From positions 8,486 through 72,485 of the IMG/VR virus record IMGVR_UViG_3300049719_000183: DNA of 64,000 bases. One strand, 5' to 3'. The DNA is from a virus. The notes beneath the pieces are model-generated. The model had not been told where the DNA came from. It made no database searches and was given only the letters and a program-made list of their open reading frames with translations. The position numbers were made by a program, and so were the translations under genes. This document shows positions 1,737 to 59,731 of this stretch, in pieces (positions within the stretch are counted from its first letter, which is position 1; every line of letters begins with the position of its first letter).

Positions 1737-2870
1737 GTGCACCTCATCACATTCGCTCAATCGGTAAGTTTCCGCTACGTCAAATCAGCGGGCACTTACA
1801 TGTTTACGGCCATGCCGAGGGTGCCCTACGTTTTCTCCTTCTCCCAGTTCGAGGCCATCAACAACACGGAGAAGATCAGGGACCTGCTGGTATCTGACAG
1901 CCTATTCTGGCCCCGTCTGCCCGCCTTCACGGTGCGCCCCACAGGTGGCCGGGGTGAGACAGTGCTGTTTTTCACGGGCGCAGGCGGGTATGGGGACCAG
2001 ATCATGGCGTGGCCTGTGGCCAAGTTTCTGCATGACATGGGCTATCGTGTTCACGTCCTGTGTGACCCGGGCAATGACCACTTATGGGGATGGTTCCCCT
2101 GGGTGGCAGGTGTGAAAGTGATGCCCCTGTCACTTGCCGAAATGGAGGAGTTCGATCATCTGGCCCTCTATGCCTATGTCACAAATGTGGACGAACATGA
2201 GGGGCAGCCACACCCCACGGACCACCTGTTCCGAATGGTGGGCATTGATCCATCCACCATCCCACCAGAGAAAAAAAGGGTGCCTCCACCGTTGAGTTTT
2301 GGACAGCTGAGTGTGCGTGCCGGTGCACCCGAGAACCTGGGCCTCATCCAGCTGAGCGGCTCTAATTTTGTCCGCAGGCCCATGCCAGACAGATTGGCAA
2401 GGATGCTCACGAAACTCATCACCGAGGTGCCGATGAACTGGCTGGGATTGCACGATGTGGACGATGAGCACATGGCTGCGGCGAGGAAAGTGGCCGAGGA
2501 ACATCCCAAGCTATTGCAGGTACGGTTGAACGTTTCCTTTGATGAGTTCGTAGGCCTCACCGCTGCCGCCAAGATAACGGTAGGTCCTGACAGCTTCCTG
2601 ACACACTTGCGGGGCTCCATGGGGCTGCCAGGTGTGAGCGTCTTTGGCACTCACCATCCAGGTATTCGCACCCGCTACTACCCCGAAATGGTGTCAGTGT
2701 GGGAGCGACAAGTGTGCCCAAGTTCTCCCTGTCTCGTTTTTCGCCGAGCTTTTCCAAGATACTTGTGCCCTCCCTCAGCTGGACCACGACAGGAGTGTGC
2801 CGTGGTGGCTGCTGGGTACGATGTTGTTACAGATACAGTTAAGAAGGTTCTTTCAGGGGTGAAAGGTTGA
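1737..2870 (+). CDS. Glycosyltransferase, GT9/heptosyltransferase-like (GT-B)
   Basis: GGYGDQIMAWP; VGPDSFLTHLRGSMGLPGVSVFGT; C-terminal CPSSPC cysteine cluster. Confidence 0.8.
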   Translation: MHLITFAQSVSFRYVKSAGTYMFTAMPRVPYVFSFSQFEAINNTEKIRDLLVSDSLFWPRLPAFTVRPTGGRGETVLFFTGAGGYGDQIMAWPVAKFLHDMGYRVHVLCDPGNDHLWGWFPWVAGVKVMPLSLAEMEEFDHLALYAYVTNVDEHEGQPHPTDHLFRMVGIDPSTIPPEKKRVPPPLSFGQLSVRAGAPENLGLIQLSGSNFVRRPMPDRLARMLTKLITEVPMNWLGLHDVDDEHMAAARKVAEEHPKLLQVRLNVSFDEFVGLTAAAKITVGPDSFLTHLRGSMGLPGVSVFGTHHPGIRTRYYPEMVSVWERQVCPSSPCLVFRRAFPRYLCPPSAGPRQECAVVAAGYDVVTDTVKKVLSGVKG

Positions 2871-3824: not shown

Positions 3825-6677
3825 GTGATCACCCTCAAGGAGACTGCCACCCGTCTGATAGCTGCAGGACCGAAGGCCGAGACAAGCCTCATCATAGATC
3901 ACTTTCGTTTTCAGCCTCCCGATTACTGGAGGAGCCCTCGTTATCAACTTTACAGGGAGACTGGCGGCGAACGGGGCTGGAACGGCTACGTCTACCCGGC
4001 GCAGCGCCAGAAGGATGGTTCAGTGGTTCTCGGTCGCGGTCACAAGGACGAACTTCTGAGTTTGCTGGAGGTGGAGGGCGTTCAAGTTGATGGCGAGCGC
4101 CTCCTGGAGAGTCCATTTCAGTCACTCACTCCAGATGACATTCCAGACGATCTCCTGCCCGGGTTCGAGCACGAGCTAACGCATGATCAGAGGGCCTGTG
4201 TCCTGACGTTGCTGAGGTACAGCTTCGGATGTGTGCGTGTGTCAGTGTCTGGAGGCAAGACGGCCATCTTTTTCGCACTGGCAGCCATGATCAAGAGCCG
4301 ACACCCGAAGGCCCGTTGCCTGTATCTGGTGCCCACGGAGCGCCTGGTGAAGCAGGTGACCAAGGAGGGCCGGAAGTTTCTCCCCGACTGGCACATCACC
4401 CAATTCGGTGGTGATGAGAAGGACAGCACGGGTGCCGATGTGGTGGTTGCCACGGTGGCGACACTCAACAAGCGCTACAAGTACCTGCTCCTCGACAACT
4501 GGTTCAAGACGTTCATGGTGCTGCTGGTGGATGAATGTTTTCCCTGCAACACTCAGGTAAATGGACGGTGCATTTCTGACATTTTACCCGGCGATAGGGT
4601 TCCCTCCTGCAACCACCAGACAGGTTGCATTGAATTACGCAAAGTAACGCGCATTTTTAGGTCAAAACCCTCTGCAATGTGTCGTCTTACACTATCAAAT
4701 GGTAAAACCCTACTCTGCACCCCGGGACATCCCCTGTGGACGGGAACCAGGTACACACCAGCTATACTATGTTTAGGAGAGAAGATGGTGTACTTAATAA
4801 ATGATAAAGAAGATAATAGAGGGTCACTCGGAGTGTGTAGTTTGCCACGCTATGGCAGAGGTGAGATACGACAAGAAACCCTATTATCGGAGCCCCCAAG
4901 CAGTGTACGGGGGTCAGTTTGTGTGCTCCGGCGCCTGCAAACAGAAACGACGCAGAAATCTTGTGCGGAAGGCCCGGAACACATCCAGCTATGTGATAAA
5001 AAAATTGGTTGTTATCTGCAACAACTGTGGGAAGCCTGTAAATTGTCGTGGAGGACGGTCAAAACTTCCCTACTATCAACGGTTGGGGGCTGCTCGGAAG
5101 GGGCGTGCCTATTGTTCAGAAGAATGCAAGAAAGCTTGGTCCACCTCCCGTTGGTCTTCTACTATGAGACGAACAAATATACGGGATCGTGCCATTATTT
5201 CGGCTCGAATGAAGACAAACAACCCCTCCTCAGACCCAGAAATCTCAGCCAGAATAGGGCAAAAATTGAAGGGGCGTGCAATGGCTCTTCGTGCTGGAAA
5301 TGGCTGGGGGTTCACAAAGTGGCAACTTATTTTGAACGAAGCTCTAAAGTTGGAGAACTTATCCACAGAATTGGAGTTTCCGGTCCCATTCCATCACCAC
5401 ATACCTGCGGAGGGCGAGCCTCCTCCCCCAAAATGCCACATGATAGACATTGCGCTACCTCTGTTAAAGATAGCGATAGAGGTGGACGGGAACAGCCACA
5501 GAACCCTTCAACAGAAGACGAGGGACTCTTGGAAGACTCGACGTTTGAAAGAATTAGGGTGGATCGTGTTGAGATTTTGGAACAGTCAGGTGGAGCGACA
5601 CACATCGCTGTGTGTCCAGACGGTTTTGTCTACAATATCGAAGTTGAGGGAAACCACAATTACTTCGCCAACGGCGTCCTAGTTCATAATTGCCACCACC
5701 TGTCATCGGGCAAGACGTGGCAGACCATCGTTACCAGCGTACCTGCCTTTTATAGATTTGGGGCCAGTGACGGGTTGAAGAACGAGCGCAAGGACGATCT
5801 TCAATTGGGCATCACCCTGCGTGGCTTCCTGGGTCCTGAGCGACATGAAGTGAGTCTGCTGCCACTCATCAACAACTCGCTTGTGGCGAAGCCCTACATC
5901 TATCTCGTGGATGTGCCCGAATGGAACAAGCGATTTGACGACTTACCTCACACAGCCGAGGCAGGATCCATCGCCTGGGCTGTCATCGACGGAGATTGGA
6001 AGCAGGGAACGTACATTTGCCCTGCCTCTGACGAGGATGAGGATGGTGATGACATCCGTCGTCTAGGCTGGCAGCGTGTCATGATCGATGGCGAGGAGGT
6101 GGAGGTGGAGAGTCGTTGGTGCCTCCTCAGAAGGGCCTATGATGAAGGCATAGTTCGCTTCAAGGAGCGCAACACTTTCGTCGTGAATTGGGCGAAACAC
6201 TTCTCGGACCAGGGCAAGCCCACGCTCGTGGTGGCTACCAGGACGGCTCACGTCTACATCCTGCAGACGATGATGGAGGCGGCAGGGCTGCAGCCGAAAG
6301 TGCTGACAGGCATGTCCACCTCGAAGGAGCGGGATGAGACGTTCGAGTGGCTGGTCAACACAACCGGCTCCATACTCATCAGTCCCATCGTGAAAGAAGG
6401 CGTGTCACTGCCCGAGCTGCGGGCGGGCATTGTGGCTGATCCTGTGGCCTCACCAGATCTGGCCCGTCAGATCATAGGCCGCTTCATCCGCACGAAGAAG
6501 ACAGGATCCAACGAGGCCGAAGTGGTGATGTTCATCGACCGCCAGTACAAGTCGGCCAGGTATAACAGCATGGCCCTGATCAAGCAGTTGGAGAAAATAC
6601 GGGGCTATAGCTTCTACTACCCCTGCCAGGGTCCTGACAAAATCGGCCCACTTTTCGAGGCCGTGTCGATGTTCTAG
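3825..6677 (+). CDS. uvsW: SF2 DNA helicase, UvsW-like, interrupted by an intein
   Basis: Walker A VSGGKT, LYLVPT, DE|CH Walker B split by the intein, FGAS, EGVSLPEL, QIIGRFIR. Confidence 0.85.
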   Translation: MITLKETATRLIAAGPKAETSLIIDHFRFQPPDYWRSPRYQLYRETGGERGWNGYVYPAQRQKDGSVVLGRGHKDELLSLLEVEGVQVDGERLLESPFQSLTPDDIPDDLLPGFEHELTHDQRACVLTLLRYSFGCVRVSVSGGKTAIFFALAAMIKSRHPKARCLYLVPTERLVKQVTKEGRKFLPDWHITQFGGDEKDSTGADVVVATVATLNKRYKYLLLDNWFKTFMVLLVDECFPCNTQVNGRCISDILPGDRVPSCNHQTGCIELRKVTRIFRSKPSAMCRLTLSNGKTLLCTPGHPLWTGTRYTPAILCLGEKMVYLINDKEDNRGSLGVCSLPRYGRGEIRQETLLSEPPSSVRGSVCVLRRLQTETTQKSCAEGPEHIQLCDKKIGCYLQQLWEACKLSWRTVKTSLLSTVGGCSEGACLLFRRMQESLVHLPLVFYYETNKYTGSCHYFGSNEDKQPLLRPRNLSQNRAKIEGACNGSSCWKWLGVHKVATYFERSSKVGELIHRIGVSGPIPSPHTCGGRASSPKMPHDRHCATSVKDSDRGGREQPQNPSTEDEGLLEDSTFERIRVDRVEILEQSGGATHIAVCPDGFVYNIEVEGNHNYFANGVLVHNCHHLSSGKTWQTIVTSVPAFYRFGASDGLKNERKDDLQLGITLRGFLGPERHEVSLLPLINNSLVAKPYIYLVDVPEWNKRFDDLPHTAEAGSIAWAVIDGDWKQGTYICPASDEDEDGDDIRRLGWQRVMIDGEEVEVESRWCLLRRAYDEGIVRFKERNTFVVNWAKHFSDQGKPTLVVATRTAHVYILQTMMEAAGLQPKVLTGMSTSKERDETFEWLVNTTGSILISPIVKEGVSLPELRAGIVADPVASPDLARQIIGRFIRTKKTGSNEAEVVMFIDRQYKSARYNSMALIKQLEKIRGYSFYYPCQGPDKIGPLFEAVSMF
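4536..5690 (+). mobile_element. Intein (385 aa) inserted in the helicase DECH motif
   Basis: Starts CFPCNTQV; block B LLCTPGHPLW; ends VYNIEVEGNHNYFANGVLVHN followed by extein Cys; visibly more AT-rich than its flanks. Confidence 0.93.
4801..5682 (+). CDS. Zn-finger plus DUF559/Vsr-like endonuclease nested out of frame inside the intein
   Basis: CxxC pairs; YCSEEC; NNPSSDPE (NUMOD-like); IDIALPLLKIAIEVDGNSH...RD..L.ELGWIVLRFWN; AGGAG and TATACT upstream. Confidence 0.85.
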   Translation: MIKKIIEGHSECVVCHAMAEVRYDKKPYYRSPQAVYGGQFVCSGACKQKRRRNLVRKARNTSSYVIKKLVVICNNCGKPVNCRGGRSKLPYYQRLGAARKGRAYCSEECKKAWSTSRWSSTMRRTNIRDRAIISARMKTNNPSSDPEISARIGQKLKGRAMALRAGNGWGFTKWQLILNEALKLENLSTELEFPVPFHHHIPAEGEPPPPKCHMIDIALPLLKIAIEVDGNSHRTLQQKTRDSWKTRRLKELGWIVLRFWNSQVERHTSLCVQTVLSTISKLRETTITSPTAS

Positions 6678-15734: not shown

Positions 15735-17003
15735 ATGACAGTCTCTGCCGGAACACTGACTACCATCACACCCCTGAACCTGCCGGATGCGGCAGGCTAC
15801 AATTTCATGGGCGGGGACGTGATGCACCAGGCTCCCACAGCCCCCATCGATTGGGCCAATCTTTCCTACTGTTCCCGCACTCTGGCCGCCCGTGACAACA
15901 TCATTGCAGCCAAGGTGGAGCAGCTTATCTCCCAGGTAAACAACCAGGAACAGCTTGTCCCCATAAATGTCCCCTCCACCTATTTGGCCCCGGGTGACGT
16001 GGAGACGTGCATCGCCGTTCGCATTCCCGCTGGTTTCCAAGGCCGTGTGTTGAACTCGGCGGTGAACGCTAGCCCCCTGGTGGGTACAACATTGCTGCAA
16101 GTCCTCTACAATCCGGCATTTGGAGCGACAACGGGACAGGTGGCCTCCTCGACCTACAGCGAGAACGCGACAGCCACCAGTTTCTACTCTACAGGCGAGT
16201 TCGCTATCGTCCTGAGCAACGCAGGCACGGTGCCCGTCACAGCATTCGCCAGCGTGCTCATCACGATGGAGCCGGTGGTGGACCAGCCGGGCAGTTTAAT
16301 TGGCCCGGGAGTCCCGGGTCCTCAGGGCCTCCCAGGTCCGTCAGGTGCGAACGGAACCAACGGCGGCCCCGGACCCATGGGACCGACAGGTGCTCCAGGC
16401 ATGGTGTGGCTGGGTCAGTGGAGCAACGTGGCCACCTACATCCCGACAAACGTGGTCTGGTACAACTGGGGTGTCCTTGGGGTGGCGGCCTACTACTGCA
16501 TCGTTGCAAACAGCAACCAGGTACCTCCCGTGCCTGCATCGGCTCCAAGTGCTTTTTGGGATCTGCTGGCCTACACGCCCCCGAGCGCACAACCAATACA
16601 GATTTCACCCACTTTCACCTGGGTAGGAGCAGGATCCGTGGGCACCACATTTGGTTACTATCAGGCACCCTTTGCAGGCTTCATCACAGGAGCTTCGGCC
16701 TCTGTGCAGTCACCCGCTGTGGGTAACATAGGGTCTGGCTGCCAGATCGACCTGCTTTACTCCAACATACCCTTCTCTGGCAGCGCAATTCGCACCTTCA
16801 ATACGGTGTACCTTGAGCGCGGAAGTTTCTTTTCTGGCACAACTTTTCCGACGCCTTATCCGGTCCTGTCAGGGCAGTACATTCGTTCTCAGGTGGTACT
16901 GCCGCCAGGTAGCGTCGTGCTTACTCCTCCCTTCTTTATCCCCGGTGGCAGCAGCACTACGGTAGCCCAGAATCTCAACGTCATCTACACGTTCATCGCG
17001 TAG
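15735..17003 (+). CDS. Tail fibre/structural protein with collagen-like repeats
   Basis: GPQGLPGPSGANGTNGGPGPMGPTGAPG; WLGQWSNVATY; CAGTTA-N4-ATG. Confidence 0.75.
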   Translation: MTVSAGTLTTITPLNLPDAAGYNFMGGDVMHQAPTAPIDWANLSYCSRTLAARDNIIAAKVEQLISQVNNQEQLVPINVPSTYLAPGDVETCIAVRIPAGFQGRVLNSAVNASPLVGTTLLQVLYNPAFGATTGQVASSTYSENATATSFYSTGEFAIVLSNAGTVPVTAFASVLITMEPVVDQPGSLIGPGVPGPQGLPGPSGANGTNGGPGPMGPTGAPGMVWLGQWSNVATYIPTNVVWYNWGVLGVAAYYCIVANSNQVPPVPASAPSAFWDLLAYTPPSAQPIQISPTFTWVGAGSVGTTFGYYQAPFAGFITGASASVQSPAVGNIGSGCQIDLLYSNIPFSGSAIRTFNTVYLERGSFFSGTTFPTPYPVLSGQYIRSQVVLPPGSVVLTPPFFIPGGSSTTVAQNLNVIYTFIA

Positions 17004-27755: not shown

Positions 27756-29075
27756 ATGGCAGAACGCAATCCTCCTCTTGTTACTTCCTGGGTGGTCGTC
27801 ACGTTCAAGAAACCGCTCCAGTGGAGCCGCTGTGACGATGAGGTGTGGACGTTCAACCCGCACGTCCGCTACATCCTCAACCATCACCAGCTTGAGGGCC
27901 TGAAGCCCTTCATCGCCACAATCAGCGAGCTGAAGACGAGCGGCCAGTATCGTCAGCTTTCCTCCAGCACGCCGCTCCAGGGAGCCCACATCCTTATTGA
28001 GCGCTATCGTGACAGGGGCATCGGCGACTACCTGTTCCTGTCCGGCGTCCTCCAGTACATCTACGAGATGTCGGGTAGCACCTCGCTCATTGACCTGTAC
28101 GCCCTCACTGACAGGGCCGGGGTGCTGCGTTTCCATCCTGCCCTGGGGAACACAGCGGGGGGTGAAGCATACGGACCCCTGGCAGGCCCCGTCCTCTACG
28201 ACAGCCTCCCACATTACACGGCCCATTGGTTCGTGGATCAGGTGACCGAGCACGTAGAAGAGCCAGACCAGCTGAATGTCTACGACCAGCTCTACCGCCA
28301 ACTGAGCATCGATCCGAAGAATGTCTCACCGAGGTACAAGAGGCCCTACGTATACCTGGAAGTATCGGACTGGAGAGATTTGGACAGCATCTACGCCACC
28401 TGCTATGGTGCTCAGCAGGTGGACCTGCGGATGACTCCGTACATTGTGCTGTGCCCGGCCGCCTATGGTGCCCTCCGCAGCGCTCCCTACAGCCTGTGGT
28501 TGAACTTGGCTGCGGCCCTGGCTGACAAGTTTGTGGTGGTGCTCGTGGGCCGCACGACGGACCAGGGCCAGCTCCCAATGCCTGACATGACGTTCGGGGA
28601 ATTTTATCAGCAGATCGACGCCATGGCGAAGAAGAACCCAAAGCGCATCTTCAACCTCATCGGCCCCACTCCACTCCGTCCGATGATGGCGTTGGTGGCG
28701 AGGGCCACGGCTCTCGTGTCCCTTGACTCGGGGATGCTCTACGTGGCCCAGGCCTCAAGAGTGCCCGCTGTTTCCATGTGGGGCACACACGCACCACACG
28801 CACGCCTTCTCTATGATGCTCCGTACATGCGCGGGGCGATTTGGAACCGACAGGCGTGCCCGTGTTCGCCGTGTTGGGCCTACGCGGGATTCCCTGAGTC
28901 CAAGTGTCCACAGGGAGCCTCGCAACGGGCCTGCGCCCCCATCGCTTCGGTGACTGTGGATGATGTCATGAAGAAGCTTGACGTGGTGCTCACCGATGTG
29001 GATGGAGCCCGTCCTGCCTTGCCTCTCAGCCCTTCTGACGCCATAAAGGTTGTGCCCGATACTCCTAATCCTTAA
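27756..29075 (+). CDS. Glycosyltransferase, GT9/heptosyltransferase-like (paralogue of 1737-2870)
   Basis: RGIGDYLFLSG; VSLDSGMLYVAQASRVPAVSMWGT; ACPCSPC. Confidence 0.82.
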   Translation: MAERNPPLVTSWVVVTFKKPLQWSRCDDEVWTFNPHVRYILNHHQLEGLKPFIATISELKTSGQYRQLSSSTPLQGAHILIERYRDRGIGDYLFLSGVLQYIYEMSGSTSLIDLYALTDRAGVLRFHPALGNTAGGEAYGPLAGPVLYDSLPHYTAHWFVDQVTEHVEEPDQLNVYDQLYRQLSIDPKNVSPRYKRPYVYLEVSDWRDLDSIYATCYGAQQVDLRMTPYIVLCPAAYGALRSAPYSLWLNLAAALADKFVVVLVGRTTDQGQLPMPDMTFGEFYQQIDAMAKKNPKRIFNLIGPTPLRPMMALVARATALVSLDSGMLYVAQASRVPAVSMWGTHAPHARLLYDAPYMRGAIWNRQACPCSPCWAYAGFPESKCPQGASQRACAPIASVTVDDVMKKLDVVLTDVDGARPALPLSPSDAIKVVPDTPNP

Positions 29076-49976: not shown

Positions 49977-50608
49977 GGCACGACGAGAAGCGCTATCTGT
50001 CAGCGCACAAGCACGTTCAGCTCATCACGGGCAACACGCTGGTCACCTTCCCCGTACTGTACGAGGAGGAGTACGACTACGCAGGGAGCGACGAGATGCA
50101 CCACGCCCACCAGATCGTGCTGGCCATGAACGTGAAGCCAGCCCGTATTGAAGGCGAGATGACCGAGGAGGCCAAAGCCGAGGCGTGGGACGACATTGCA
50201 TTCCCGAAGTGGGTGCCAATGACGGAGGCCATCGAGCACCATCTGTTCGCCTTCACACTCGATGAGCGGGTGAACTACCAGGGTCCCAAGATATTTGCCA
50301 ACTATGACTCCACGTTGCCCGTTGACTGACATGACTGTCACTGATTTTCATAACAGGGAGCACGCCCACGCCATCCGTCGTTCCCTTCGGGACGCCAGCC
50401 TGTGGATTCACCAGATAAAGGGCAACACACTGTCGCGGAAGACGCCCCTGGAGGTGATGGTGAACGACAAGGCGCTGGCTGCCATTGCCTCCCTTGAACA
50501 GGCTCTCCACCTCATCGACACGCCTCCCGTTACGCCTGAGGGCGTGGTCTTCCTGAAGAAGGTGGTCGAGAGCGCGAGAAGCGCTGTTGACTGATCTGTA
50601 GTTAACGG

Positions 50609-52732
50609 GTGAGCGACACCTATAAGACTTTCGTCCGTTCGGCCAGTAACTGGTCAGAGTTTTCCAGTGCCAAGAAGCATGTGCAAGATACGGGCCTGAC
50701 GTATGATGAGGCCAAACGTGCCTGTGCCGCCTACAACGCCAACCTGACTCCCTCCGAGAAGGGTACAAAGATGGAGTTCACGGCTGAGAGCGCCACCCGC
50801 AAGGCAATTGACCAGGTGCCACTCCACGAGTTTTTCGGCAAGGACTCCTCTGGCGGCGAGCCCGACGACTACGGGGTTGCTGCGGGAGAGCGCAGGAAGC
50901 TGCCCTATGGAAGCCAGGGAGGCAACATGCTCCTGACGAAGAAGAGCTACGAGCGTGTGAAGCGAGAGCGGGCCGAGGAGGGCCAGGACACGCCTGCATG
51001 GGAAACCCTGGCGGTGTACAAGACTGAATCAGCCAAGCCTCGCCGCCTCCGCATAGAAGAGATGATGTCTGCTGGAGAGGTGACCCGCTTGGCCAACGAG
51101 CAAGCTGAAAAAGCCGCCCGTAGGAAGCAGTCGCCTCGGGTGTTTTTCGATGCTGCTGACATCGAGAAGAATTTTGGCAAGATACCAAACATCGGCAGCT
51201 ACCGTCCCACGGGTTGGGAGCTGGTGGAACATCACATGGTGGACAAGAGCGGCATGGGAGCCGAGGATGAGCCTGCCCTCACTGTTAAAGGCTACAAGGC
51301 GTGGCTATCAAAGTACTTGGAAACCCCAGAGACGTGCGGATGGGCGATCATCGAGGAGGGCCAATTCCAGGTGGTCGTGGGTCGGTTCGTCAAGCAGGTG
51401 CAGAGAAACGCGGGTCCGTCACCGACCCGGGAGAGCATCGACAGGATGTTCGAGGACAGTCAACTGGGCATTCCCGGGTTTGACTGGACGTACGGCGACA
51501 TCGGTCCATCGGATCCGGACGCTGGCAAACCCGCCAATGGTGGCAATTTCGACACCATCGAGTACACGTTGCCCGAGTACTGGGCCAGCTATCTGATCAA
51601 TGGCGATGCCTCAGGCCTGGAGGACGGCGAGCAGGAGGAGATTGACGCCTGGCTGGCGAAGGAGGGCAATCCCAACATCGTGGATTGCAGCGAGGAGGGC
51701 TACTTCTCCCGCTACTGTGACGCCCCGGGCCAGCTTGCAGGGAACATGCTCACGTACACGGCGCTTGTGCCGAAGGACAAGAATTACCCGGGAGAAACTG
51801 AGGAATCCCCGCCTGGCGCGTTGGAATCCACCGATCGCGCCCCGGGTGATCACGGCTATGTGGCCTTCTACAAGGGCAAGAAGATGGACGTGTACGCTAC
51901 TTCCTCCTATGCTGCACAGAAGAAGGCGGCAGCGGCCTTCGGGGCGAAGAAGAGCTACGAGGTGAACGTAGTGCTCGCAGAGAAGCCTGATGGATCACAG
52001 GTGACGCACGTACCCGAGGGCACTGAGCCTGATTGGCACGAGCCAGAGAGGACAGGAAAGCCACCGGCTTCAATGCGTCTGGCAACTGCGGCAGCCATGC
52101 TGCAGGGCATGCCAGACGGTCCTGAGAGGCATCGCAGAAAGTCTGCCGATATTCGTGGCCGAGCCGATGACGTGGCCAATGCTCGTGACAAGGAGGCGGC
52201 CAGGCCGATGAACAAGCTCAAGAGATTCTTGGGCTTCGGGGAGTCCATTCAGGAGGCAGGCATCGCCTCAGGCATGAAGGCAGGCCCCGAGCCCCGGGGT
52301 GAGGAGCAGGAGGAAGAGGGCACTGCCAGGGAGCAGGGCTACGAAGGCGACGGCACGCCGCAGGACGGCGCTGATGGCAGCCGGGCGCACACGGACAAGG
52401 GAATTGAGGACATGCAGTTTCAGCCCTCTGACCCGAAGCTGCTTGAACCTGAGCCGGGACAGCACAGCTACCGTGCGGGGTGGGACAACGAGATCGCCTA
52501 CTATCTGTCTCATCCACAGATGGACAAGCTTGAGGAACTGAAGGCCACGCCTGAGCAGATGAAGGCGTTCGTGAGGGTGGTACGGCGCTGGCACAAGGTG
52601 AGCCTCCCGAATACGCTGATGGGAGATCCCAGCTGTCTCATGGTGCAGGTGTGGGGCGAGCCGAGCGGCGACAACATGGAGGGCTATTCCATGTGGCTCG
52701 GCATTGAGAAGGACGGCTACACCCACTCATGA
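50609..52732 (+). CDS. Modular polyprotein-like protein, putative internal head protein
   Basis: TAGTTA-N4-GTG; small domains separated by ESATRKAIDQVPLHE, ESAKPRRLRIEE, RESIDRMFE, KRFLGFGESIQE; ends GIEKDGYTHS. Confidence 0.75.
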   Translation: MSDTYKTFVRSASNWSEFSSAKKHVQDTGLTYDEAKRACAAYNANLTPSEKGTKMEFTAESATRKAIDQVPLHEFFGKDSSGGEPDDYGVAAGERRKLPYGSQGGNMLLTKKSYERVKRERAEEGQDTPAWETLAVYKTESAKPRRLRIEEMMSAGEVTRLANEQAEKAARRKQSPRVFFDAADIEKNFGKIPNIGSYRPTGWELVEHHMVDKSGMGAEDEPALTVKGYKAWLSKYLETPETCGWAIIEEGQFQVVVGRFVKQVQRNAGPSPTRESIDRMFEDSQLGIPGFDWTYGDIGPSDPDAGKPANGGNFDTIEYTLPEYWASYLINGDASGLEDGEQEEIDAWLAKEGNPNIVDCSEEGYFSRYCDAPGQLAGNMLTYTALVPKDKNYPGETEESPPGALESTDRAPGDHGYVAFYKGKKMDVYATSSYAAQKKAAAAFGAKKSYEVNVVLAEKPDGSQVTHVPEGTEPDWHEPERTGKPPASMRLATAAAMLQGMPDGPERHRRKSADIRGRADDVANARDKEAARPMNKLKRFLGFGESIQEAGIASGMKAGPEPRGEEQEEEGTAREQGYEGDGTPQDGADGSRAHTDKGIEDMQFQPSDPKLLEPEPGQHSYRAGWDNEIAYYLSHPQMDKLEELKATPEQMKAFVRVVRRWHKVSLPNTLMGDPSCLMVQVWGEPSGDNMEGYSMWLGIEKDGYTHS

Positions 52733-52974
52733 ACACCACGGTAAGAAAGCTCCTTGGTGAAGAGGCTGCCGTATGGACTGACAGCGAAATCCTGGACTGG
52801 ATTGAGGCCAACTGTGACGTGAATGTGTATACGGGCACGGGCGCTAACACACGGAAGCTCAATTACAGCGGGCCGCTGCGCAATCGTGTCTCTATTGAGA
52901 TGAACAGACAGCGGCACACGGAGGCAGGCACGGATCCAGCCCCGAGTGTTCATCATGTAGGAGCACATCCATGA
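52729..52974 (+). CDS. Small protein with N-terminal MNTTVRKLLGEE signal variant
   Basis: ATGA coupling. Confidence 0.6.
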   Translation: MNTTVRKLLGEEAAVWTDSEILDWIEANCDVNVYTGTGANTRKLNYSGPLRNRVSIEMNRQRHTEAGTDPAPSVHHVGAHP

Positions 52975-53738
52975 ACGAAGCCTACGCACGTCAGAATCCC
53001 GAGGAGTACCGCCGCAAGGAGAACGAGTGGAAGCCAGCCACTCGCAGGAGGAGCGGGGAGGCCATGCCACGCACTGCCCATGATTGTCTGCCGGGTGAGC
53101 CGTGCGACAATGGTGTGCTCAGGCCCGGCCGCCTGAAGAAGGGCTGGTCCACGCAGGACGAGGTGGACGCCGAGATACTGGCCAAGGCCGAGCAGCGTGC
53201 ACGCGAGGTGGGGGTTGAGCAGTACGCCCGATCCAAGGAGGCCTCCATGGACTCGCCCGATGTGCTGCCAGAGTCAGCCACGCGCAGGCGCATAGACCGG
53301 ATATTTGAGATTGCGGAGGAGCCCGATAATCTGAAGGCCGAACTGCGTGCTAATCAGGCTGAAATCTCTGACCAAGCGACGGGCATAGCGGAGAATCCCT
53401 CAGGTTTGGGTCAGTACTACTTGGACGGTGGGCGCGAAGTAAATACGGAGGAGGCTCAAGATGCCTTGCTTGCTGGTGAACAAGTGGAAGTACCCAATGC
53501 AGGTGCTGGAAGCTTTCGCTCTTTCTTTAAGTCCGTAGGCTGTGACAAGGTGGAGGTGTGGGACTGGACAAGCAGTGCGGGTGATTGGGTTTTTGGTGTA
53601 CGAGATGGTCCTGAGGGAATGTGGTACCCTGCTTTCCAATCAAACCGGTACCCTGGTCATGGTATGAGCTATTCAATTGACCGAGGACACGGCTTCCCTT
53701 CTTGGGAGGACTTGATGGAATATATGGGTCAGCAATGA
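52971..53738 (+). CDS. Two-module protein with ESATRRRIDRIFE linker
   Basis: Motif at 53271-53309. Confidence 0.7.
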   Translation: MNEAYARQNPEEYRRKENEWKPATRRRSGEAMPRTAHDCLPGEPCDNGVLRPGRLKKGWSTQDEVDAEILAKAEQRAREVGVEQYARSKEASMDSPDVLPESATRRRIDRIFEIAEEPDNLKAELRANQAEISDQATGIAENPSGLGQYYLDGGREVNTEEAQDALLAGEQVEVPNAGAGSFRSFFKSVGCDKVEVWDWTSSAGDWVFGVRDGPEGMWYPAFQSNRYPGHGMSYSIDRGHGFPSWEDLMEYMGQQ

Positions 53739-54427
53739 GTACCCGTGCCCGCATAGACAGGTTGTTTGAGCGGGGTGCCCCGTACAAGACGGCTAAGACG
53801 TCCAGGTGATGGGTTTCACCGTACGCAGCGACTCCTTCCACGACCTCTCCATCACCCATGAACACCACTGAAGCCTTCCTACGCCAGCATCCCAGCATAG
53901 ACCTGAAGAAGGCGCACCGCTTGCGCGACGAGCCCATCCGTTGCCGCCACTGTGGTGGCGAGGGAGGCAGTCATGAGGCCAATTGCCCGACAGGACCGTC
54001 CCCGTCTGACAGAGACGTGGAGGTGGGTTCCGAGGACCCACTCCACACACGTCGCGATCGCGGGTGGGTGAAGGACTTGAATCTAGAGCCCAGGGGCTAC
54101 ACGGACGAACCCGAAACTTATGCGTGGGAGTCCGAGACGCGCAGGCGCATAGACCGTTTGTTTGAAGCGCCGTGGGTGTCAGGATCGGACCTGAGCCCTG
54201 AAGAGCGGGAGCACGTCAAAAGAGCTTACGTTCACCGCTTCACCGGCCAACACAAGCCGGACTGGGTCAGTCGGCCCCGTCCAAACGGCAAACCCTACCC
54301 GTTGCATTTCAAGGACGACGATGACTGGCTGAGGAACACGAAATTCGACGTGACAAAGGGTGGGCGTCTCAGCCGTAGGACCAAGCACTCTCAGAGCAAC
54401 CCCACATTCCCGAACGGGATAGAGTGA
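53735..54427 (+). pseudogene. Interrupted modular gene (MSTRARIDRLFE start, TGA at 53807; downstream ORF 53858-54427 with ESETRRRIDRLFE)
   Basis: Manual translation; may reflect indels or sequencing error. Confidence 0.55.
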
Positions 54428-54441
54428 TCCTTAGTTAGTGG

Positions 54442-54735
54442 GTGAACACCCGCCAACGCATTGACCGTCTGTTTGAGATAGCCACCCCACTAGCGCCTGG
54501 GGAGCTTTCTCCTGAGGAGCAGGAGGCTCTCATTGGCAACAACGCCACGCCGGAACAGGTTCAGGCCTATTTGGACCTGAAGGAGCAGTACGCCCAGGTG
54601 AGCGTTCCCTATCGCTATTCAAGTGCGATTGCCACGGCCAAGGGGGCGCCCGCTGTGCTGGCCTGCTGGTGTCACTATAAGGACGGCGGCAAGATTTTCA
54701 TCGCGATCACCAAGGATGGCGAGACCCACTCGTGA
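54442..54735 (+). CDS. Single-module protein with MNTRQRIDRLFE leader
   Basis: TAGTTA-N4-GTG; ends IAITKDGETHS, like the last module of 50609-52732. Confidence 0.75.
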   Translation: MNTRQRIDRLFEIATPLAPGELSPEEQEALIGNNATPEQVQAYLDLKEQYAQVSVPYRYSSAIATAKGAPAVLACWCHYKDGGKIFIAITKDGETHS

Positions 54736-56912
54736 CCACTCGTCAGCACATCGACACCCTGTTTGAAATAGGGCCTCCTGACGAAATGAACGTCAGCAGG
54801 GACCAGGCGGTGCGCGACTGGCAGGCAGCACTGCACAGTGGAAAGTCGAGCAAGGAACTTCAGAAGGATTTCGAGTTGTACGGCAAGAGGCTGGCTGCCA
54901 ACTATGCCCGGGGGAAGGGTTCTGATTACAGTTCGGCACGGAAGCTGGCTGCCATGGGCAAGCTGAAGGAGACACTGACTGGCGGTGGTTCCTCTGCGTT
55001 GCCACATATCCGCATCATCAAGAAGGCTCCAGGGAGGCAGTTTTACAGGGGCGTTGGAACTCTGGAGAACCATACTCTGTGTGGGGCAGAGATGACCGAC
55101 AGAGATATGCGTCTCCATGATGCTCGAAAGTCTGCCGCTGCTGGGTGGAAGATTTGTCCTGAGTGCCTTAGGCGGGCGGGCATTACGGAAACTCTCACCG
55201 GCTATGGTTCTGGTGGCAATGTGGGTGGTTCCACCTCTGGCACGGGCGGCATGGAGGCCGATGCGGGCAGTGAGATAGCTCATCAGGAGACGGCGAGGAA
55301 GCTGGCGAAGAAAAGGCGTCGTACCTTCGAGACTGTGTTTGGCGAGCCCAGTGGGCTTTACGGAGAGCCTAAAGAGGGGACGGAGCACATCGTATCTGCT
55401 GCCGTACGCAATACAGAGACGGGAGACATTTACCTGGGCGACGATCACGAATACTGTTACCAAAACGTGGATCGTAACACAGGCAAGAGAGACTACGATC
55501 ACTACGAAGACGGTTTCTATACCAGTGAGGACAGATTCCTTAGCAGGAGAGACGCTTTTGAGTTGGCGTTGAATACGGGACAGGGCTCTGCACGGGAGGA
55601 AGATAATGAGTTCGAGCATACGGATGGAAGCTCGGAGAATTTTTACGCCGTTGAGAGCATCGACCGCCTGTTCGAGCGCATGGAGCTGCCCTACGGATAT
55701 TGGGTGAGCAGGAGTGGCACGTTCACGGCGGTGGAGTATGAGCAGCATGAGTCCACCGCAGAGGAGATGCTGGGTGCCGAATGGGACTCCGGGGAGAGCA
55801 CCTACAAGCAGATGTACGACCGTGGGTTTGTGCGTGTCCTGAACACCGAAGAGAGCATTATTGTGGCTGGGGACGACCTCACCAATGCCCAGCGCCGTGA
55901 ACTCACCAACACGGCCATAGAAAGTGGGCGGCGGCTCCTGTGGGAGAAGCGCGGTCTGACATCGCCTCCTTTCGCCAAGGTGCTCTACCACCCCAGTGAT
56001 ACGGAAGTGGTGATGTCCGAGGGTTGGGTTGGAGGATATGTGGAGTTCTGGTTGGACCCGAGTGGCACGCTCATCCGTGCACCTGAGGGCCACGCCATTG
56101 AGGCAGCGAAGATCCTCGGCTGCGATGTACATGGCGGCGAATACCAGAAGATGTACGACAAGCGGTACGCCCGGATCGTGCGGACAGACCGTGGAATATA
56201 CGCCGAGCACAAGCAGCCGCTCAGCGCGGCCCAGTTTCGTACCTTGAAAGATGTGGCCATTGAGTATCATCTACCGCTCCACTACAGGGCGCAGGGCGCT
56301 GATGGGCTGGTGTCGAAGATATACACACCTGATGATGTTGCTGCGATGTCGGAGTCACCAGAGGTGGCCATCGACAATAGCTCCAAGAAGGCCATAGCAC
56401 TTGCAGGCAATGAGATAAAGCATCTTCACGACATGCCACTGGAAGACATGCGGGAGAACATTGTCATCATTCGCCAGCCTGAGGGCAGCAACCCCCATCC
56501 GCTCATCGGCGTGGGTTCCACCTGGGTGTATTTCATGGACTCTCCTAAGAGTGCCAAGCTGATGAAGCAGGGCAAGATCCCCTATTTGATGGTGCCCGTG
56601 GGCACTGGATTCCACGGTGGCAACCCCATCACAGACGTGTGGACGAAACGGTTTCAGAAGCCTGGCACTGAGCACATCCTAGGACTCTTGCAGGGGCACA
56701 GTGACGAGAAGAGCATCTACATCGACATGATGAGCGTGCGCACGGCGTGGAGGCGCAACCGGATCAACAGCCTGATGATCGATGCTCTGAGGTCGTGCTA
56801 TCCAAAAGCCAAGTTGGAGTATTCCAGCCCCACACAGGCAGGGGAGAAGTTCATCAAGGGTTACTCGAAGCCAGAGCCCACCAGGCTTCGTGGGTTCTCA
56901 TCTGTCAGCTAA
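54732..56912 (+). CDS. Modular polyprotein with Zn ribbon, duplicated module and C-terminal GNAT-like domain
   Basis: MTTRQHIDTLFE leader; ESIDRLFE linker; TLCG...CPECL; W...SG...H...Y..MYD twice; IYIDMMSVRTAWRRNRINSLMI...PTQAGEKF. Confidence 0.75.
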   Translation: MTTRQHIDTLFEIGPPDEMNVSRDQAVRDWQAALHSGKSSKELQKDFELYGKRLAANYARGKGSDYSSARKLAAMGKLKETLTGGGSSALPHIRIIKKAPGRQFYRGVGTLENHTLCGAEMTDRDMRLHDARKSAAAGWKICPECLRRAGITETLTGYGSGGNVGGSTSGTGGMEADAGSEIAHQETARKLAKKRRRTFETVFGEPSGLYGEPKEGTEHIVSAAVRNTETGDIYLGDDHEYCYQNVDRNTGKRDYDHYEDGFYTSEDRFLSRRDAFELALNTGQGSAREEDNEFEHTDGSSENFYAVESIDRLFERMELPYGYWVSRSGTFTAVEYEQHESTAEEMLGAEWDSGESTYKQMYDRGFVRVLNTEESIIVAGDDLTNAQRRELTNTAIESGRRLLWEKRGLTSPPFAKVLYHPSDTEVVMSEGWVGGYVEFWLDPSGTLIRAPEGHAIEAAKILGCDVHGGEYQKMYDKRYARIVRTDRGIYAEHKQPLSAAQFRTLKDVAIEYHLPLHYRAQGADGLVSKIYTPDDVAAMSESPEVAIDNSSKKAIALAGNEIKHLHDMPLEDMRENIVIIRQPEGSNPHPLIGVGSTWVYFMDSPKSAKLMKQGKIPYLMVPVGTGFHGGNPITDVWTKRFQKPGTEHILGLLQGHSDEKSIYIDMMSVRTAWRRNRINSLMIDALRSCYPKAKLEYSSPTQAGEKFIKGYSKPEPTRLRGFSSVS

Positions 56913-56913
56913 C

Positions 56914-57507
56914 ATGGACACCGACGAGAAGAAACCCGGCTGCCTGCTGGCGAGGCTTAGGCCTGCCGACGCCGCACGCTTCTGCATGGAGATCGACAAG
57001 CTCATCTCCGATGACGACGTTGACGTGGAGGCCGGTGGAAAGGAAAGGGACACTCACATCTCGGTGCTCTTCGGGTTCGAGTATGGGATGGATACCAAGC
57101 CGTTGAAGCAATTCCTGTCCGAGCAGAACCCCTTCTACGCAACCCTCGGTCCCATTGGCGTGTTCAGGAAGGTGAAGAAGGGGTACAAGGAGCAGAAGGA
57201 CGATGATGGGTCAGGCGTCCTGAAGGTGGAGGTAGAGAGCGAGCATTTGGTTAATCTGCACTATGCCCTGAGGGAGGAGTTTGGCGAGAAGGTGAAGGTG
57301 ACGTTCCCCGACTACAAACCCCACCTCACACTGGCCTATCTGAAGGCCGGGGCCAAGGCCTTCGACTTGGAGGGTAGCACGAAGTTTGCGGGCGAAACCT
57401 ACTACTTCAACGAACTCGTATTCAGTCATGGCACCAGTGCCCATCGGTCAGCGGTGACGATGAAGCTTGGACAGATCGGAGAGTCTGTGAGGCGCCTACT
57501 TGGATGA
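56914..57507 (+). CDS. 2H phosphoesterase, Acb1/T4 gp57B-like
   Basis: PGCLLA; two Hx(S/T) motifs: THISVLFG and FPDYKPHLTLAYLK. Confidence 0.8.
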   Translation: MDTDEKKPGCLLARLRPADAARFCMEIDKLISDDDVDVEAGGKERDTHISVLFGFEYGMDTKPLKQFLSEQNPFYATLGPIGVFRKVKKGYKEQKDDDGSGVLKVEVESEHLVNLHYALREEFGEKVKVTFPDYKPHLTLAYLKAGAKAFDLEGSTKFAGETYYFNELVFSHGTSAHRSAVTMKLGQIGESVRRLLG

Positions 57508-58058
57508 CTACCTGTCAGCACATAGATCGCTTGTTTGAAAAGATAGCGAGTCTCCCCGAGGTGATGTACCATCTCACTAACTCAGCCAACTTTAAGCTCA
57601 GAAAAGTTCATCCTGCGAACAATACGACTCTCGGTGGTGTGTGGGAACCGGGCATATTTCTTGCGAGGTCGGTTGAGGCCTGGGTTAACGGGCACGGCTA
57701 CTGGCGTCCCTGGGTTGTTGAGTTCGACACTGCTGCATTGGAACCCGGTGATCTTGTTTTTGAGAGCGGTTACTCAGGAGAGGTGCTCGTGAAAGCCAGT
57801 GCGTATAGCCGACTCAAGGTGCTGCGCGTCGTTCCACTTGATGCACACTGCAGGGAGGTTTTTGGGGAACGGGGCTGGACGGAGGATTCTTTTGGAACGG
57901 ACTTCCGGTCGGGTGAGAAGCTGTCGGATGAAAGGGCACGAGGAGAAATGCGTGACTATCACTATGCAGGGGACGCCCGTACCGAGCCCGAGGAGTGGAG
58001 GAAAGCCTACCGTAAGCGCGTTTCAAAGCACGCCAAAATGAGGGGGCAAGGACGTTGA
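57504..58058 (+). CDS. ADP-ribosyltransferase-like domain with MTTCQHIDRLFE leader
   Basis: MYHLT...PGIFLA...SGEVLV fits the ART strand pattern (H, aromatic, E). Confidence 0.55.
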   Translation: MTTCQHIDRLFEKIASLPEVMYHLTNSANFKLRKVHPANNTTLGGVWEPGIFLARSVEAWVNGHGYWRPWVVEFDTAALEPGDLVFESGYSGEVLVKASAYSRLKVLRVVPLDAHCREVFGERGWTEDSFGTDFRSGEKLSDERARGEMRDYHYAGDARTEPEEWRKAYRKRVSKHAKMRGQGR

Positions 58059-58251
58059 GGACAAGATCCTGGCGGTTGCGGGCGAACTGGAAACATACGC
58101 ATGGTACACAGAGGGCGACGAGAAGGAATACTACGACGGGATGATCTATGGCTGCTACGACGCCTTGGACATGCTAAATGATTGGCCTGGATCAGGTAAG
58201 CCAGTGCCAGGCACCGAAGACAACTGGAAGGACTAACTCCCTAGTTACAGC

Positions 58252-58824
58252 ATGAGCAACGCATCCCCTGTGGTGAAGCATTTCCTCGGCGAGTCCGAGA
58301 TGTGGCGGGATTACAAGCCCGAGGTGCGCACCCTCCTGAAGTGCCTGGCTGACGCTGGCTTCACGATCAGAAACGCCAGCAACGGCGGTGGACCGGACGA
58401 GGACTTCGGTCCTGAGATACCTGACTTCGTGGAGGAGTTGACGGCTGCCGAGGAGGCCTATCTGTACGTCACTTCTCCCACCGGAAAGAGAGCCACCATC
58501 TACCTGGTGATGGGCAACTCGCCGGGTGAACTGGTTAGCGACTACACGGCCATCCCCGAGCTGGAGGCCCCGTTGGAGGCTGCCTCACAGGAGTGGTGGG
58601 GCAAGGAGCAGCCGATGGAGCCTGCTCCTGGATCCACGCCCGATGAAGCGGCTGAAAAGGCACACTTCGACAAGGAGGCGTCTACACCGGCCTTTGTGCC
58701 CGATCCTGATGGCGACGATGACGAGTCCCGTGCGCACCCTGTTGAGGGTCCTGACGAGCCCGAGGAAAGGGTGGTGAACGGTGGCAATGAGAGGGAGCAG
58801 TTTTACAGCGACATGGGGCTGTGA
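58252..58824 (+). CDS. Acidic late protein with MSNASPVVKHFLGE leader
   Basis: TAGTTA-N4-ATG; IYLVMGNSPGELVSDY. Confidence 0.7.
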   Translation: MSNASPVVKHFLGESEMWRDYKPEVRTLLKCLADAGFTIRNASNGGGPDEDFGPEIPDFVEELTAAEEAYLYVTSPTGKRATIYLVMGNSPGELVSDYTAIPELEAPLEAASQEWWGKEQPMEPAPGSTPDEAAEKAHFDKEASTPAFVPDPDGDDDESRAHPVEGPDEPEERVVNGGNEREQFYSDMGL

Positions 58825-59045
58825 TCGCACGCATTTCAGATACGGTGATCACACGCATTTTTGTCATTTTCATCATCGTGATCGCCTTCTTCGCAGGGTA
58901 CCGTCTCGGTAGATCCACCGCCCCCGGGGTACGCCAGGGCCACCAGATACAGGCCTCGGTCGATGCAGGCTTCGCTCTGTATCTCCACGAGTTGGCCGAC
59001 AAGGTGGACGCTGACACGAAGAGGGAACGGGAGATGTCGAAATGA
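58821..59045 (+). CDS. Small membrane protein
   Basis: Hydrophobic IFVIFIIVIAFFAGY; coupled at both ends. Confidence 0.55.
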   Translation: MIARISDTVITRIFVIFIIVIAFFAGYRLGRSTAPGVRQGHQIQASVDAGFALYLHELADKVDADTKREREMSK

Positions 59046-59731
59046 ACACCCGTCAGCGCATAGATGAGATGTTTGACGATGACGAGGACGGCGTATTTCC
59101 TCGTGCCGACAGGTGGGAAAAAGTTGTTCCAGGCCTTCACACCGTGGGTAAGGAAGGAGCAGACGCTGCTCGTTCAAATGCCAAACGTGCACAGGAGCGC
59201 CCGAGGCTCTGTGATACAATCAGGCACGGCGACAAGGTGACCATCCTCGTGCCTGCGGGCAGGGGGCGTGACGGACAGGAATGGAAGAAGGCCACGGGCA
59301 GAGCCGTGATGAGGGGGCCAGCGGGCTGGGTGATAAACCTAGGCGGAAGATTTGGCACCCCGGGTATTGCCGGGGATGACAACACAGTGAGCGTGAAACA
59401 TGCCCGCCAGGAGTCCATTGACCAATACCCGCTTCAGGCAGCAGCCATCCAGAAGCTGGAGGATGCGGGTTTTGAGTTCGCATCCTGGTTCAACGCCCAC
59501 GACCCGGAGGATGAGTGGGCCAAGTGCGCCACAATGGTGAAGCGAGTCTCAAGCTATGAGCAGACCCAGTGTGAGGTGGATCCGCAGGGATTCTGCAACG
59601 GGCTTTCCGTAGAGGAGTTCCTTGGCCGGGGCCAAGCCCATCCCACTACTGAATCAATAGACGACAGGTTGTTCGAGATAGCGTGGCTACCCAGTTCTCC
59701 TCGATCTGCACACGGCTGGAGTGGCCGTTGA
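59042..59731 (+). CDS. Modular protein with MNTRQRIDEMFD leader and ESID linkers
   Basis: RQESIDQ (59411); TESIDDRLFE (59651). Confidence 0.7.
   Translation: MNTRQRIDEMFDDDEDGVFPRADRWEKVVPGLHTVGKEGADAARSNAKRAQERPRLCDTIRHGDKVTILVPAGRGRDGQEWKKATGRAVMRGPAGWVINLGGRFGTPGIAGDDNTVSVKHARQESIDQYPLQAAAIQKLEDAGFEFASWFNAHDPEDEWAKCATMVKRVSSYEQTQCEVDPQGFCNGLSVEEFLGRGQAHPTTESIDDRLFEIAWLPSSPRSAHGWSGR

Follow-up and report, generated by a model that had tools for sequence, protein, structure and literature searches.

What is the function of a 12-residue peptide that opens five open reading frames (ORFs) of one viral gene cluster and recurs inside ORFs of the same cluster? We have examined this question for the cluster at positions 50,609-59,731 (ORFs A to K, Table 1) of a 64,000-nucleotide stretch of viral DNA, here called the window, which comprises bases 8486-72485 of the 72,485-nt IMG/VR record IMGVR_UViG_3300049719_000183 (CheckV completeness 32%). 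Judging by its genes, the record covers part of the genome of an uncultured, distantly T4-like myovirus, because Pfam and PHROGs searches identified a T4-type portal in the window (PF07230, 2.2e-13), gp25-like and gp6-like baseplate wedge proteins, UvsX, a gp32-like single-stranded DNA-binding protein and a gp47/SbcD-like nuclease. The closest cultured phage by portal shares merely 25.7% identity, and the same DNA is present in peat metagenome runs of several studies. Our answer, which draws on sequence and on analogy with T4, is that the peptide is, with moderate probability, a T4-type capsid-targeting and prohead-protease signal that serves also as a joint in multi-module cargo proteins.

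Occurrence and form of the peptide

The initial annotation had located five N-terminal leaders (53735, 54442, 54732, 57504 and 59042) and six internal copies (50786, 51431, 53271, 54128, 55653 and 59651), and all eleven are present at those coordinates. Two of the leader ORFs (54442 and 54732) start with GTG, however, and the one at 53735 is only 24 codons long. The looser variants that it listed are also there: MNTTVRKLLGEE opens B, VVKHFLGESE opens I, KLKRFLGFGES occupies residues 536-546 of A, and ESVRRLLG forms the C-terminus of G. A six-frame scan with the pattern ID-x(1,2)-[LMIV]-F-[ED] gave 10 matches in the window, all of them in coding frames of the plus strand and confined to 51437-59657; the rest of the window had none. 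Over the whole record there were 11 matches, the additional one being the N-terminal leader MSPARERIDALFE upstream of the window. When the record was shuffled 200 times the mean number of matches was 0.095 and the largest 1, versus the 11 observed; 500 shuffles of the predicted proteome gave a mean of 0.064 and a largest value of 2, versus 9 observed. The five exact copies of IDRLFE use 3, 2, 3, 2, 2 and 2 different codons at their six positions. Since the amino acids are fixed while the codons vary, selection acts on the peptide and not on the DNA.

The leader consensus on the five window ORFs is M-x-T-R-x-R-I-D-R-L-F-E. Residue 12 is acidic (Glu or Asp) in all five, and likewise in three related proteins (P0008, P0146 and P0181). 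Internal linkers of the type "ES...IDRLFE" are found in A, C, D, F and K, in a long form that is the leader unit with Glu-Ser in place of Met (E/S-A-T-R-R-R-I-D-R-I-F-E, a slash here and below marking a joint) and in a short form, E-S-I-D-R-L-F-E. Glu-Ser precedes every internal copy in the window (6/6), as well as those of the related proteins P0151, P0153 and P0203. Among the 11 copies matching the pattern, eight have L or I at P3 and Glu at P1, and one more ends in M-F-E. The remaining two are both in K, where the leader ends in M-F-D and the other copy has an extra residue before L-F-E. A second, looser class of leader ends in L-G-E and is represented by MNTTVRKLLGEE (B) and MSNASPVVKHFLGESE (I).

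A second, small cluster of leaders lies upstream of the window (L004 5056-7347), and three of its ORFs follow the hexamer TAGTTA, which is treated below. Its leaders are MNDLFKLLFED, MSPARERIDALFE, MTKISPSVVSLIGESN and MITPRQFVAGLLED; one is strict and the looser ones open the ORFs at 5056, 6489 and 7006. MTKISPSVVSLIGESN is a near-twin of the leader of I.

The motif was also considered as an internal translation start and rejected, the internal copies having no ATG, GTG or TTG. A strict degenerate DNA pattern for TRxRIDRLFE, run against viral_contigs, gave a single match in a non-coding frame opposite real genes, which was attributed to chance.

The peptide and module boundaries

The positions of the motif were compared with module boundaries mapped by homologues, and the two coincide in A, C and F, as the initial annotation had anticipated. 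A phmmer search with F returned 250 proteins at E <= 0.001, and the matches form separate blocks at approximately residues 90-152, 195-295 (F2), 307-420 and 428-525 (F3a and F3b) and 540-715 (F4). Every one of these blocks is also found as a small protein by itself and as part of larger ones of 800-4126 residues. The linker ESIDRLFE (F308-315) lies between F2, where matches end by 295, and F3a, where they start at 307-322. An AlphaFold model of F185-545 has a predicted local distance difference test score (pLDDT) below 50 over F288-321, between folded parts, and of 91-96 in the F2 core. For A, 29 shorter homologues were available: nine fall on A152-290, 18 on A313-424 (DUF6926, core 314-389), and one each on A415-469 and A543-707. 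The joints of A are either the strict motif or looser hydrophobic-x-E sites (RRLRIEE/MMS, GALE/S and FLGFGE/S). For C, 12 of 13 other matches are restricted to C2, after the motif, and the thirteenth, P0203, has C1, the motif and a different module. These alignments support the view that the peptide is independent of the domain that follows and marks module starts both as leader and as linker.

The modules were originally described as mutually unrelated. This holds for most of them; A 633-707 and E 22-97, however, are paralogues (E 5e-5). A and E also share the ending ..DG[YE]THS (52700-52735 and 54703-54738), and the start of the next gene overlaps the stop codon in the same way in both; the duplicated unit thus includes the junction. 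By eye F holds two copies of one module (~320-420 and 428-525), and homologues match each stretch.

Among relatives, the same modules are found in other combinations. P0151 (68% identical to A3) consists of A3, ESVRSRIDRIFE and an unrelated module, while P0203 joins C1 to its other module through ESATQRNIDRMFE and P0153 bears ESVARSKIDRVFE. In P0140, F2 is followed by STRKRIDALFE and another stretch, and P0132 has an internal TRKHIDTLLE ahead of an F3 module. Single modules, or repeats of a single module, stand behind a leader in P0146 (MNAQTFIDALFE), P0196 (MNPRTFARQLLE), P0181 (MNARQYIDQLFE) and P0008 (MNARTRIDELFE). These proteins show that modules are shuffled at the motif and that the leader follows the lineage and not the domain. 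In the H family (15 members) the domain always starts with MYHLT and the preceding part varies: it is MNARQYIDQLFE in this lineage, and elsewhere MRKFTQFLKE, MKIFEILNE, M.xHLxExW..I[QE] or nothing. Standalone F4 homologues start with MKTFKQFLVED, MLNFKEFMLNE, MNFRNFLLE and similar leaders directly before [MS]P.I[ST]..GK, and giant proteins that contain F4 have this junction in their interior (..INRPINES.., ..SPIIESPVITRQGK).

A large uncultured phage of 32% GC carries, at locus L010 (L010 3070-20224), six genes with leaders of the type MKYTDYYKHLLxE. Five of these are contiguous and one lies ~8 kb further; they include 796-aa and 944-aa proteins and an F4 homologue. Also in this stretch are a 2H-like gene, which has a leader of its own (MNLYREFYESLKEA), and a gene whose product looks, by eye, like an HD-domain nucleotidyltransferase. 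A further observation concerns P0008 (364 aa), in which the leader is followed by a twin-arginine-like stretch (RRQFLK and a hydrophobic run) and then by three F2 modules. As read from its sequence, removal of the leader would leave an N-terminal signal of the twin-arginine translocation type.

A proposed capsid-targeting signal

The T4 internal proteins IPI-III and Alt enter the prohead core by means of a capsid-targeting sequence (CTS) of ~10 residues at the N-terminus, which gp21 removes (PMC9026906, PMC3012670). The CTS comprises the first 10 residues of IPIII, gp21 cleaves after L/I-x-E (PMC9026906), and the CTS sequence is MKTYQEFIAE (PMC8442874). Alt, an ADP-ribosyltransferase (ART), is among the packaged proteins and loses residues from either end (PMC9026906), and among T-even phages the set of internal proteins varies and the CTS is constant (PMC9026906, PMC3012670).

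We favour a comparable role for the window peptide because of its T4-like position, its similar length, the same ending, its independence of the attached domain and the T4-type phage that carries it. The [LIM]-F-E ending fits the L/I-x-E rule of gp21. As in T4, a short N-terminal propeptide with a hydrophobic-x-Glu end is found on unrelated, fast-evolving proteins of a T4-type phage, and the cargo includes a protein with a putative ART-like fold, Alt being an ART. The leaders on standalone F4 homologues in other phages are close to MKTYQEFIAE itself. The window leader differs from the T4 CTS in sequence and length (MxTRxRIDRLFE, 12 residues, versus 10) and is not similar to it by sequence comparison; it is additionally a module joint inside long ORFs, often after Glu-Ser. 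The initial annotation had proposed a T4-like signal acting both as leader and as spacer. The domain independence, the position at module starts and the fit to L/I-x-E bear this out, whereas capsid targeting, cleavage, injection and the function of the cargo are points that we infer.

Under this explanation the peptide would be the CTS of its lineage, a 12-residue amphipathic propeptide that docks proteins on the scaffolding core as the prohead assembles, and a gp21-type prohead protease would cut the leader off after the final Glu of [LIM]-F-E. The 50.6-59.7 kb cluster and the upstream cluster would be a variable locus of head-packaged, probably injected proteins, with the putative ART-fold protein H, the 2H phosphoesterase G and the GNAT-like module F4 among the cargo. 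Because a cut site is built into the tag, the fusion of neighbouring tagged genes would be free of cost, and this would explain the long ORFs A, F, C, D and K with their joints of the form E/S-x-T-R-R-R-I-D-R-L-F-E/. The head protease would then separate the joined modules at head maturation, internal copies being the signal retained at gene fusions. The Glu-Ser before internal copies suggests a second cut, which would excise the 12-mer.

A stronger version of this proposal is possible but doubtful. The head protease would double as a polyprotein-processing enzyme, and the peptide would be a 'load-me, cut-here' cassette at which modules are fused, split and swapped, with A and F each loaded as a single unit and then freed as at least five proteins inside the capsid. 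Within this version, two irregularities of the cluster, the TGA that closes the short ORF D0 and a stretch without a start codon after H (both described below), could be recoding switches that yield tagged (packaged) and untagged (cytoplasmic) forms.

Two further systems bear comparison. The polyvalent proteins of Iyer et al. 2017 are likewise long chains of unrelated small domains of effector type, and they are predicted to accompany the DNA into the host (PMC5512222). A and F each have at least five disparate modules, all of which are also found alone elsewhere. Release of polyvalent domains is predicted to be by embedded peptidases (zincin-like MPTase, assemblin-like), but none was found in A-K; a repeated short signal in place of an embedded peptidase would hand the cutting over to the head protease. 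In the giant phages phiKZ, 201phi2-1 and SPN3US a gp21-related protease cleaves many proteins of the head interior after Glu at short motifs, some of them more than once (PMC5694885, PMC10052503), and the first 15 residues of the paralogues gp53 and gp54 are identical (PMC5694885). The giant phages differ in their A/S/G-x-E motif and in their propeptides, often of more than 100 residues, and their multiple cuts clear propeptides and are not described as separating cargo modules (PMC5694885).

Several observations weigh against a capsid-targeting role. No prohead protease was matched in the 72.5-kb record (~32% of the genome), and neither Pfam nor PHROGs named a scaffold or major capsid gene there. 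As those genes lie outside the record, protease specificity and capsid propeptides cannot be compared with the peptide. The cluster is bordered in the record by genes for DNA methylases and HNH proteins and by genes for gp47-type nucleases, and not by head genes. Contigs identical to parts of the cluster occur in RNA libraries of two peat metatranscriptome runs, where DNA carry-over is possible, and they reveal neither timing, strand, ends nor transcription of the cluster. Standalone homologues are leaderless in 18 of 18 cases for DUF6926, in 9 of 9 for A3, and in most C2 proteins. A leader-like helix before F2 (ARxxIEAVFG-PS) is conserved together with the domain and often without the Glu, and such helices may therefore serve a role other than cleavage. 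The leader of K ends in Asp, and in T4 a CTS with Asp as its final residue is not processed but still directs targeting (PMC9026906). A literature search found no described precedent for a CTS-type signal inside a protein as a joint; the CTS, variable internal protein loci and polyvalent proteins are already in print.

Of the contextual evidence, the strongest for a connection with the head comes from another phage, the distant relative represented by the 64-kb record G007. This record has a T4 portal (7.8e-40), 28% identical to that of the window (E 1e-67), and a Peptidase_S77 protease (8.5e-15). Its homologue of H, which starts with MPVKFLQLFE/SE, directly adjoins a protease-scaffold fusion gene, and a major head protein gene (phrog_138, 3.7e-46) follows directly after the fusion. 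Just beyond lie genes that begin with MIEFLKLFE and MIEFLRLFE, and a fourth copy, MSSKKFLQLFE, is nearby. The fusion gene (L031 6424-8484) is itself unusual, with a protease domain at residues 18-213 and an acidic tail of ~470 residues that by eye is coiled-coil and scaffold-like. Peptidase_S77 was found in two T4-type records, G006 and G007, both with H-family leader proteins; in the head module of G006 no leader in common with its H homologue was seen. Searches with PF03420 and PF07068 in G001-G005, and with PF03420 in G011-G015, gave no match, and as these fragments are 6-39% complete they are uninformative on absence.

Alternative explanations

The N-terminal tag might be a true capsid-targeting leader and the internal copies uncut relics of fusion, in which case the long ORFs would encode intact 'polyvalent' proteins. 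Phage proteins of this kind with 2-15 domains have been described and predicted to be packaged (PMC5512222), F4 and F2 modules are found elsewhere inside proteins of 800-4126 aa, and the D0 remnant would represent leader decay in the locus. Relics should drift, however, and the internal copies are conserved as well as the leaders and carry the extra conserved 'ES'; we regard this explanation as unlikely. A shade less probable again is that the peptide is an uncleaved helix which binds a putative hub protein of host or phage (a sliding clamp, a chaperone or a protease adaptor, for instance), brings each module to it in the infected cell, and has no connection with the capsid. A short amphipathic helix is indeed predicted, and the F2-family helix is conserved without the terminal Glu. 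The I-D-x-L-F sequence resembles clamp-binding motifs; the clamp version, for which that likeness was the sole ground, was dropped. Binding to a partner leaves unexplained the fixed N-terminal register, the T4-CTS-like leaders on orthologous modules in other phages and the leader genes on either side of the protease and capsid genes of G007.

Very improbable, in our judgement, is a repeat that acts as DNA, for example as the boundary of a recombination cassette or as a regulatory site, and is translated by chance. DNA resembling ATGAACACC is common to the gene starts and modules are exchanged at the motif, as such an element would predict, but synonymous codons vary where amino acids are fixed, every copy is read in the coding frame of a single strand, and the peptide is kept in relatives at 40-68% identity. 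A capsid-targeting signal that also joins modules is the explanation we retain.

Cargo domains

The 2H phosphoesterase proposed for G was confirmed by a match to 2_5_RNA_ligase2 (PF13563, 39.9 bits, cut-off 27), and the paired H-x-T/S motifs THISV and PHLTL can be read in the sequence. Scores for two other models were 23.2 for LigT_PEase (cut-off 23.3) and 22.4 for Acb1 (cut-off 27). Because the latter is below its cut-off, G was not assigned to Acb1, the anti-CBASS family. For H, the earlier suggestion of an ART-like protein is weakly supported: the best VIA-align Z score was 5.4 (MbcT), and Foldseek gave no match at E <= 0.001. Among the VIA-align matches listed for H, we take about 38 of 50, from their titles, to be of ART fold. 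The model of H has a pLDDT of 86.6, with the leader as a lower-confidence helix at residues 3-15 (block means 63 and 76) before the domain. On this model the fold of H appears, weakly, to be ART-like, and membership of the family is not established. The GNAT-like assignment of F4 is borderline, at 21.3 bits for PF13880 versus a cut-off of 22.8; a profile of the F4 family matched RibT (3.4e-4) and ESCO1 (5.8e-3) among PDB sequences. A carries DUF6926. In a Pfam search of the ORFs and 19 segments no family was recognised for any of the other segments, and no peptidase family was found in A-K even at E up to 1. The ESM Atlas provided no usable lead for module C2.

The TAGTTA element

TAGTTA occurs at 14 sites versus 4.9 expected, and none of 100 shuffles reached 14. 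The whole record has 18 sites, and 11 of these are followed, after 3-5 nt, by the start codon of an ORF of at least 74 aa (window 11867, 12775, 24999, 25308, 48129 on the minus strand, 50599, 54432 and 58242; L004 5045, 6479 and 6996). The genes behind them include the portal gene, a PKD-domain ORF, an 806-aa ORF and six genes of the leader clusters. The hexamer had been noted at the head of the cluster and before the portal and tail fibre genes; it does precede the portal gene, A, E and I, but none is listed at the tail-fibre ORF at 15735. The spacing of 3-5 nt is that at which a ribosome-binding site or Shine-Dalgarno sequence would sit. TAGTTA could be a -10-like element for leaderless (perhaps late) transcripts, or an unusual translation signal. 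That the portal gene has it in common with six leader-cluster genes counts in favour of the capsid-targeting explanation, but its position does not make it an established late promoter.

Features of the cluster and of the record

The ORFs of the cluster are summarized in Table 1.

Table 1. ORFs of the leader cluster (window coordinates; a slash marks a joint).
ORF	Coordinates	Strand	Length	Features
A	50609..52732	+	707 aa	Chain of at least 5 modules; TAGTTA at 50599; junctions ESATRKAIDQVPLHE (50786-50830), RRLRIEE/MMS (51041-51061), TRESIDRMFE (51425-51454), GALES/TD (51815-51835), KLKRFLGFGE/S (52214-52246)
B	52729..52974	+	81 aa	Loose leader MNTTVRKLLGEE
C	52971..53738	+	255 aa	C1, linker ESATRRRIDRIFE (53271-53309), C2
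D0	53735..53809	+		Leader MSTRARIDRLFE and 12 codons; closing TGA in frame with D
D	53858..54427	+	189 aa	Internal linker ESETRRRIDRLFE (54128-54166)
E	54442..54735	+	97 aa	GTG start; leader (M)NTRQRIDRLFE; TAGTTA at 54432
F	54732..56912	+	726 aa	Leader (M)TTRQHIDTLFE; module ~90-152; KKRRRTFETVFGE (55308-55346); F2 (~195-295); linker ESIDRLFE (55653-55676); F3a and F3b (~307-525); junction AAMSE/SPEV (56340-56366); F4 (~540-715, GNAT-like)
G	56890..57507	+	205 aa	2H phosphoesterase; no N-terminal leader; start perhaps ATG 56914; C-terminus ESVRRLLG (57481-57504)
H	57504..58058	+	184 aa	Leader MTTCQHIDRLFE; domain of ADP-ribosyltransferase-like fold
I	58252..58824	+	190 aa	Acidic; loose leader MSNASPVVKHFLGESE; TAGTTA at 58242
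J	58821..59045	+	74 aa	Hydrophobic stretch; no leader, as read from the sequence
K	59042..59731	+	229 aa	Leader MNTRQRIDEMFD, ending in Asp; ESIDQYPLQ (59411-59437); ESIDDRLFE (59651-59677), then 17-residue tail

Two places in the cluster depart from simple gene structure. The D0 stretch (53735-53857) has a perfect leader, and its letters are identical in a contig from a second peat sample; D0 represents either the decay of a leader or a site of read-through. After the stop codon of H, window 58059-58237 contains ~57 coding-like codons in the +1 frame, with no ATG, GTG or TTG start, beside a GGGGG run. These letters too are identical in the second sample, and by homology H seems complete at its own stop.

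A search with the cluster for near-identical DNA among cultured phages gave no match, nor did tblastn of F and P0027 against the same phages, and no relative of F was found in viral_contigs. One metagenome scan with A as query returned only two contigs of ~1.3 kb, with DUF6926 and an A5 homologue. At gp47-anchored loci of distant relatives (36-40% identity) the motif was absent and the synteny different.

Elsewhere in the record, Pfam and PHROGs also identified a collagen-like tail fibre, DNA methylases and an intein-bearing helicase (window 3825-6677, with Pfam Intein_splicing hits). Upstream of the window a 919-aa helicase-like ORF (L004 2281-5040, minus strand) has, by eye, an apparent intein-like insert. 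There are two genes of glycosyltransferase family 9 (heptosyltransferase-like), at window 1737-2870 and 27756-29075.

Implications

If the peptide is a capsid-targeting signal, the leader would provide a means, from sequence alone, of listing the injected proteome of uncultured T4-type phages. Modules such as DUF6926, the C2 family, H and the F2-F4 families would then be candidates for host-takeover or anti-defence functions in the first minute of infection. The fast evolution of the locus would also be explained, as fusion and fission of genes are neutral when the tag itself contains the cut site, and the tag might act as a second, orthogonal packaging signal in phage-capsid delivery tools.

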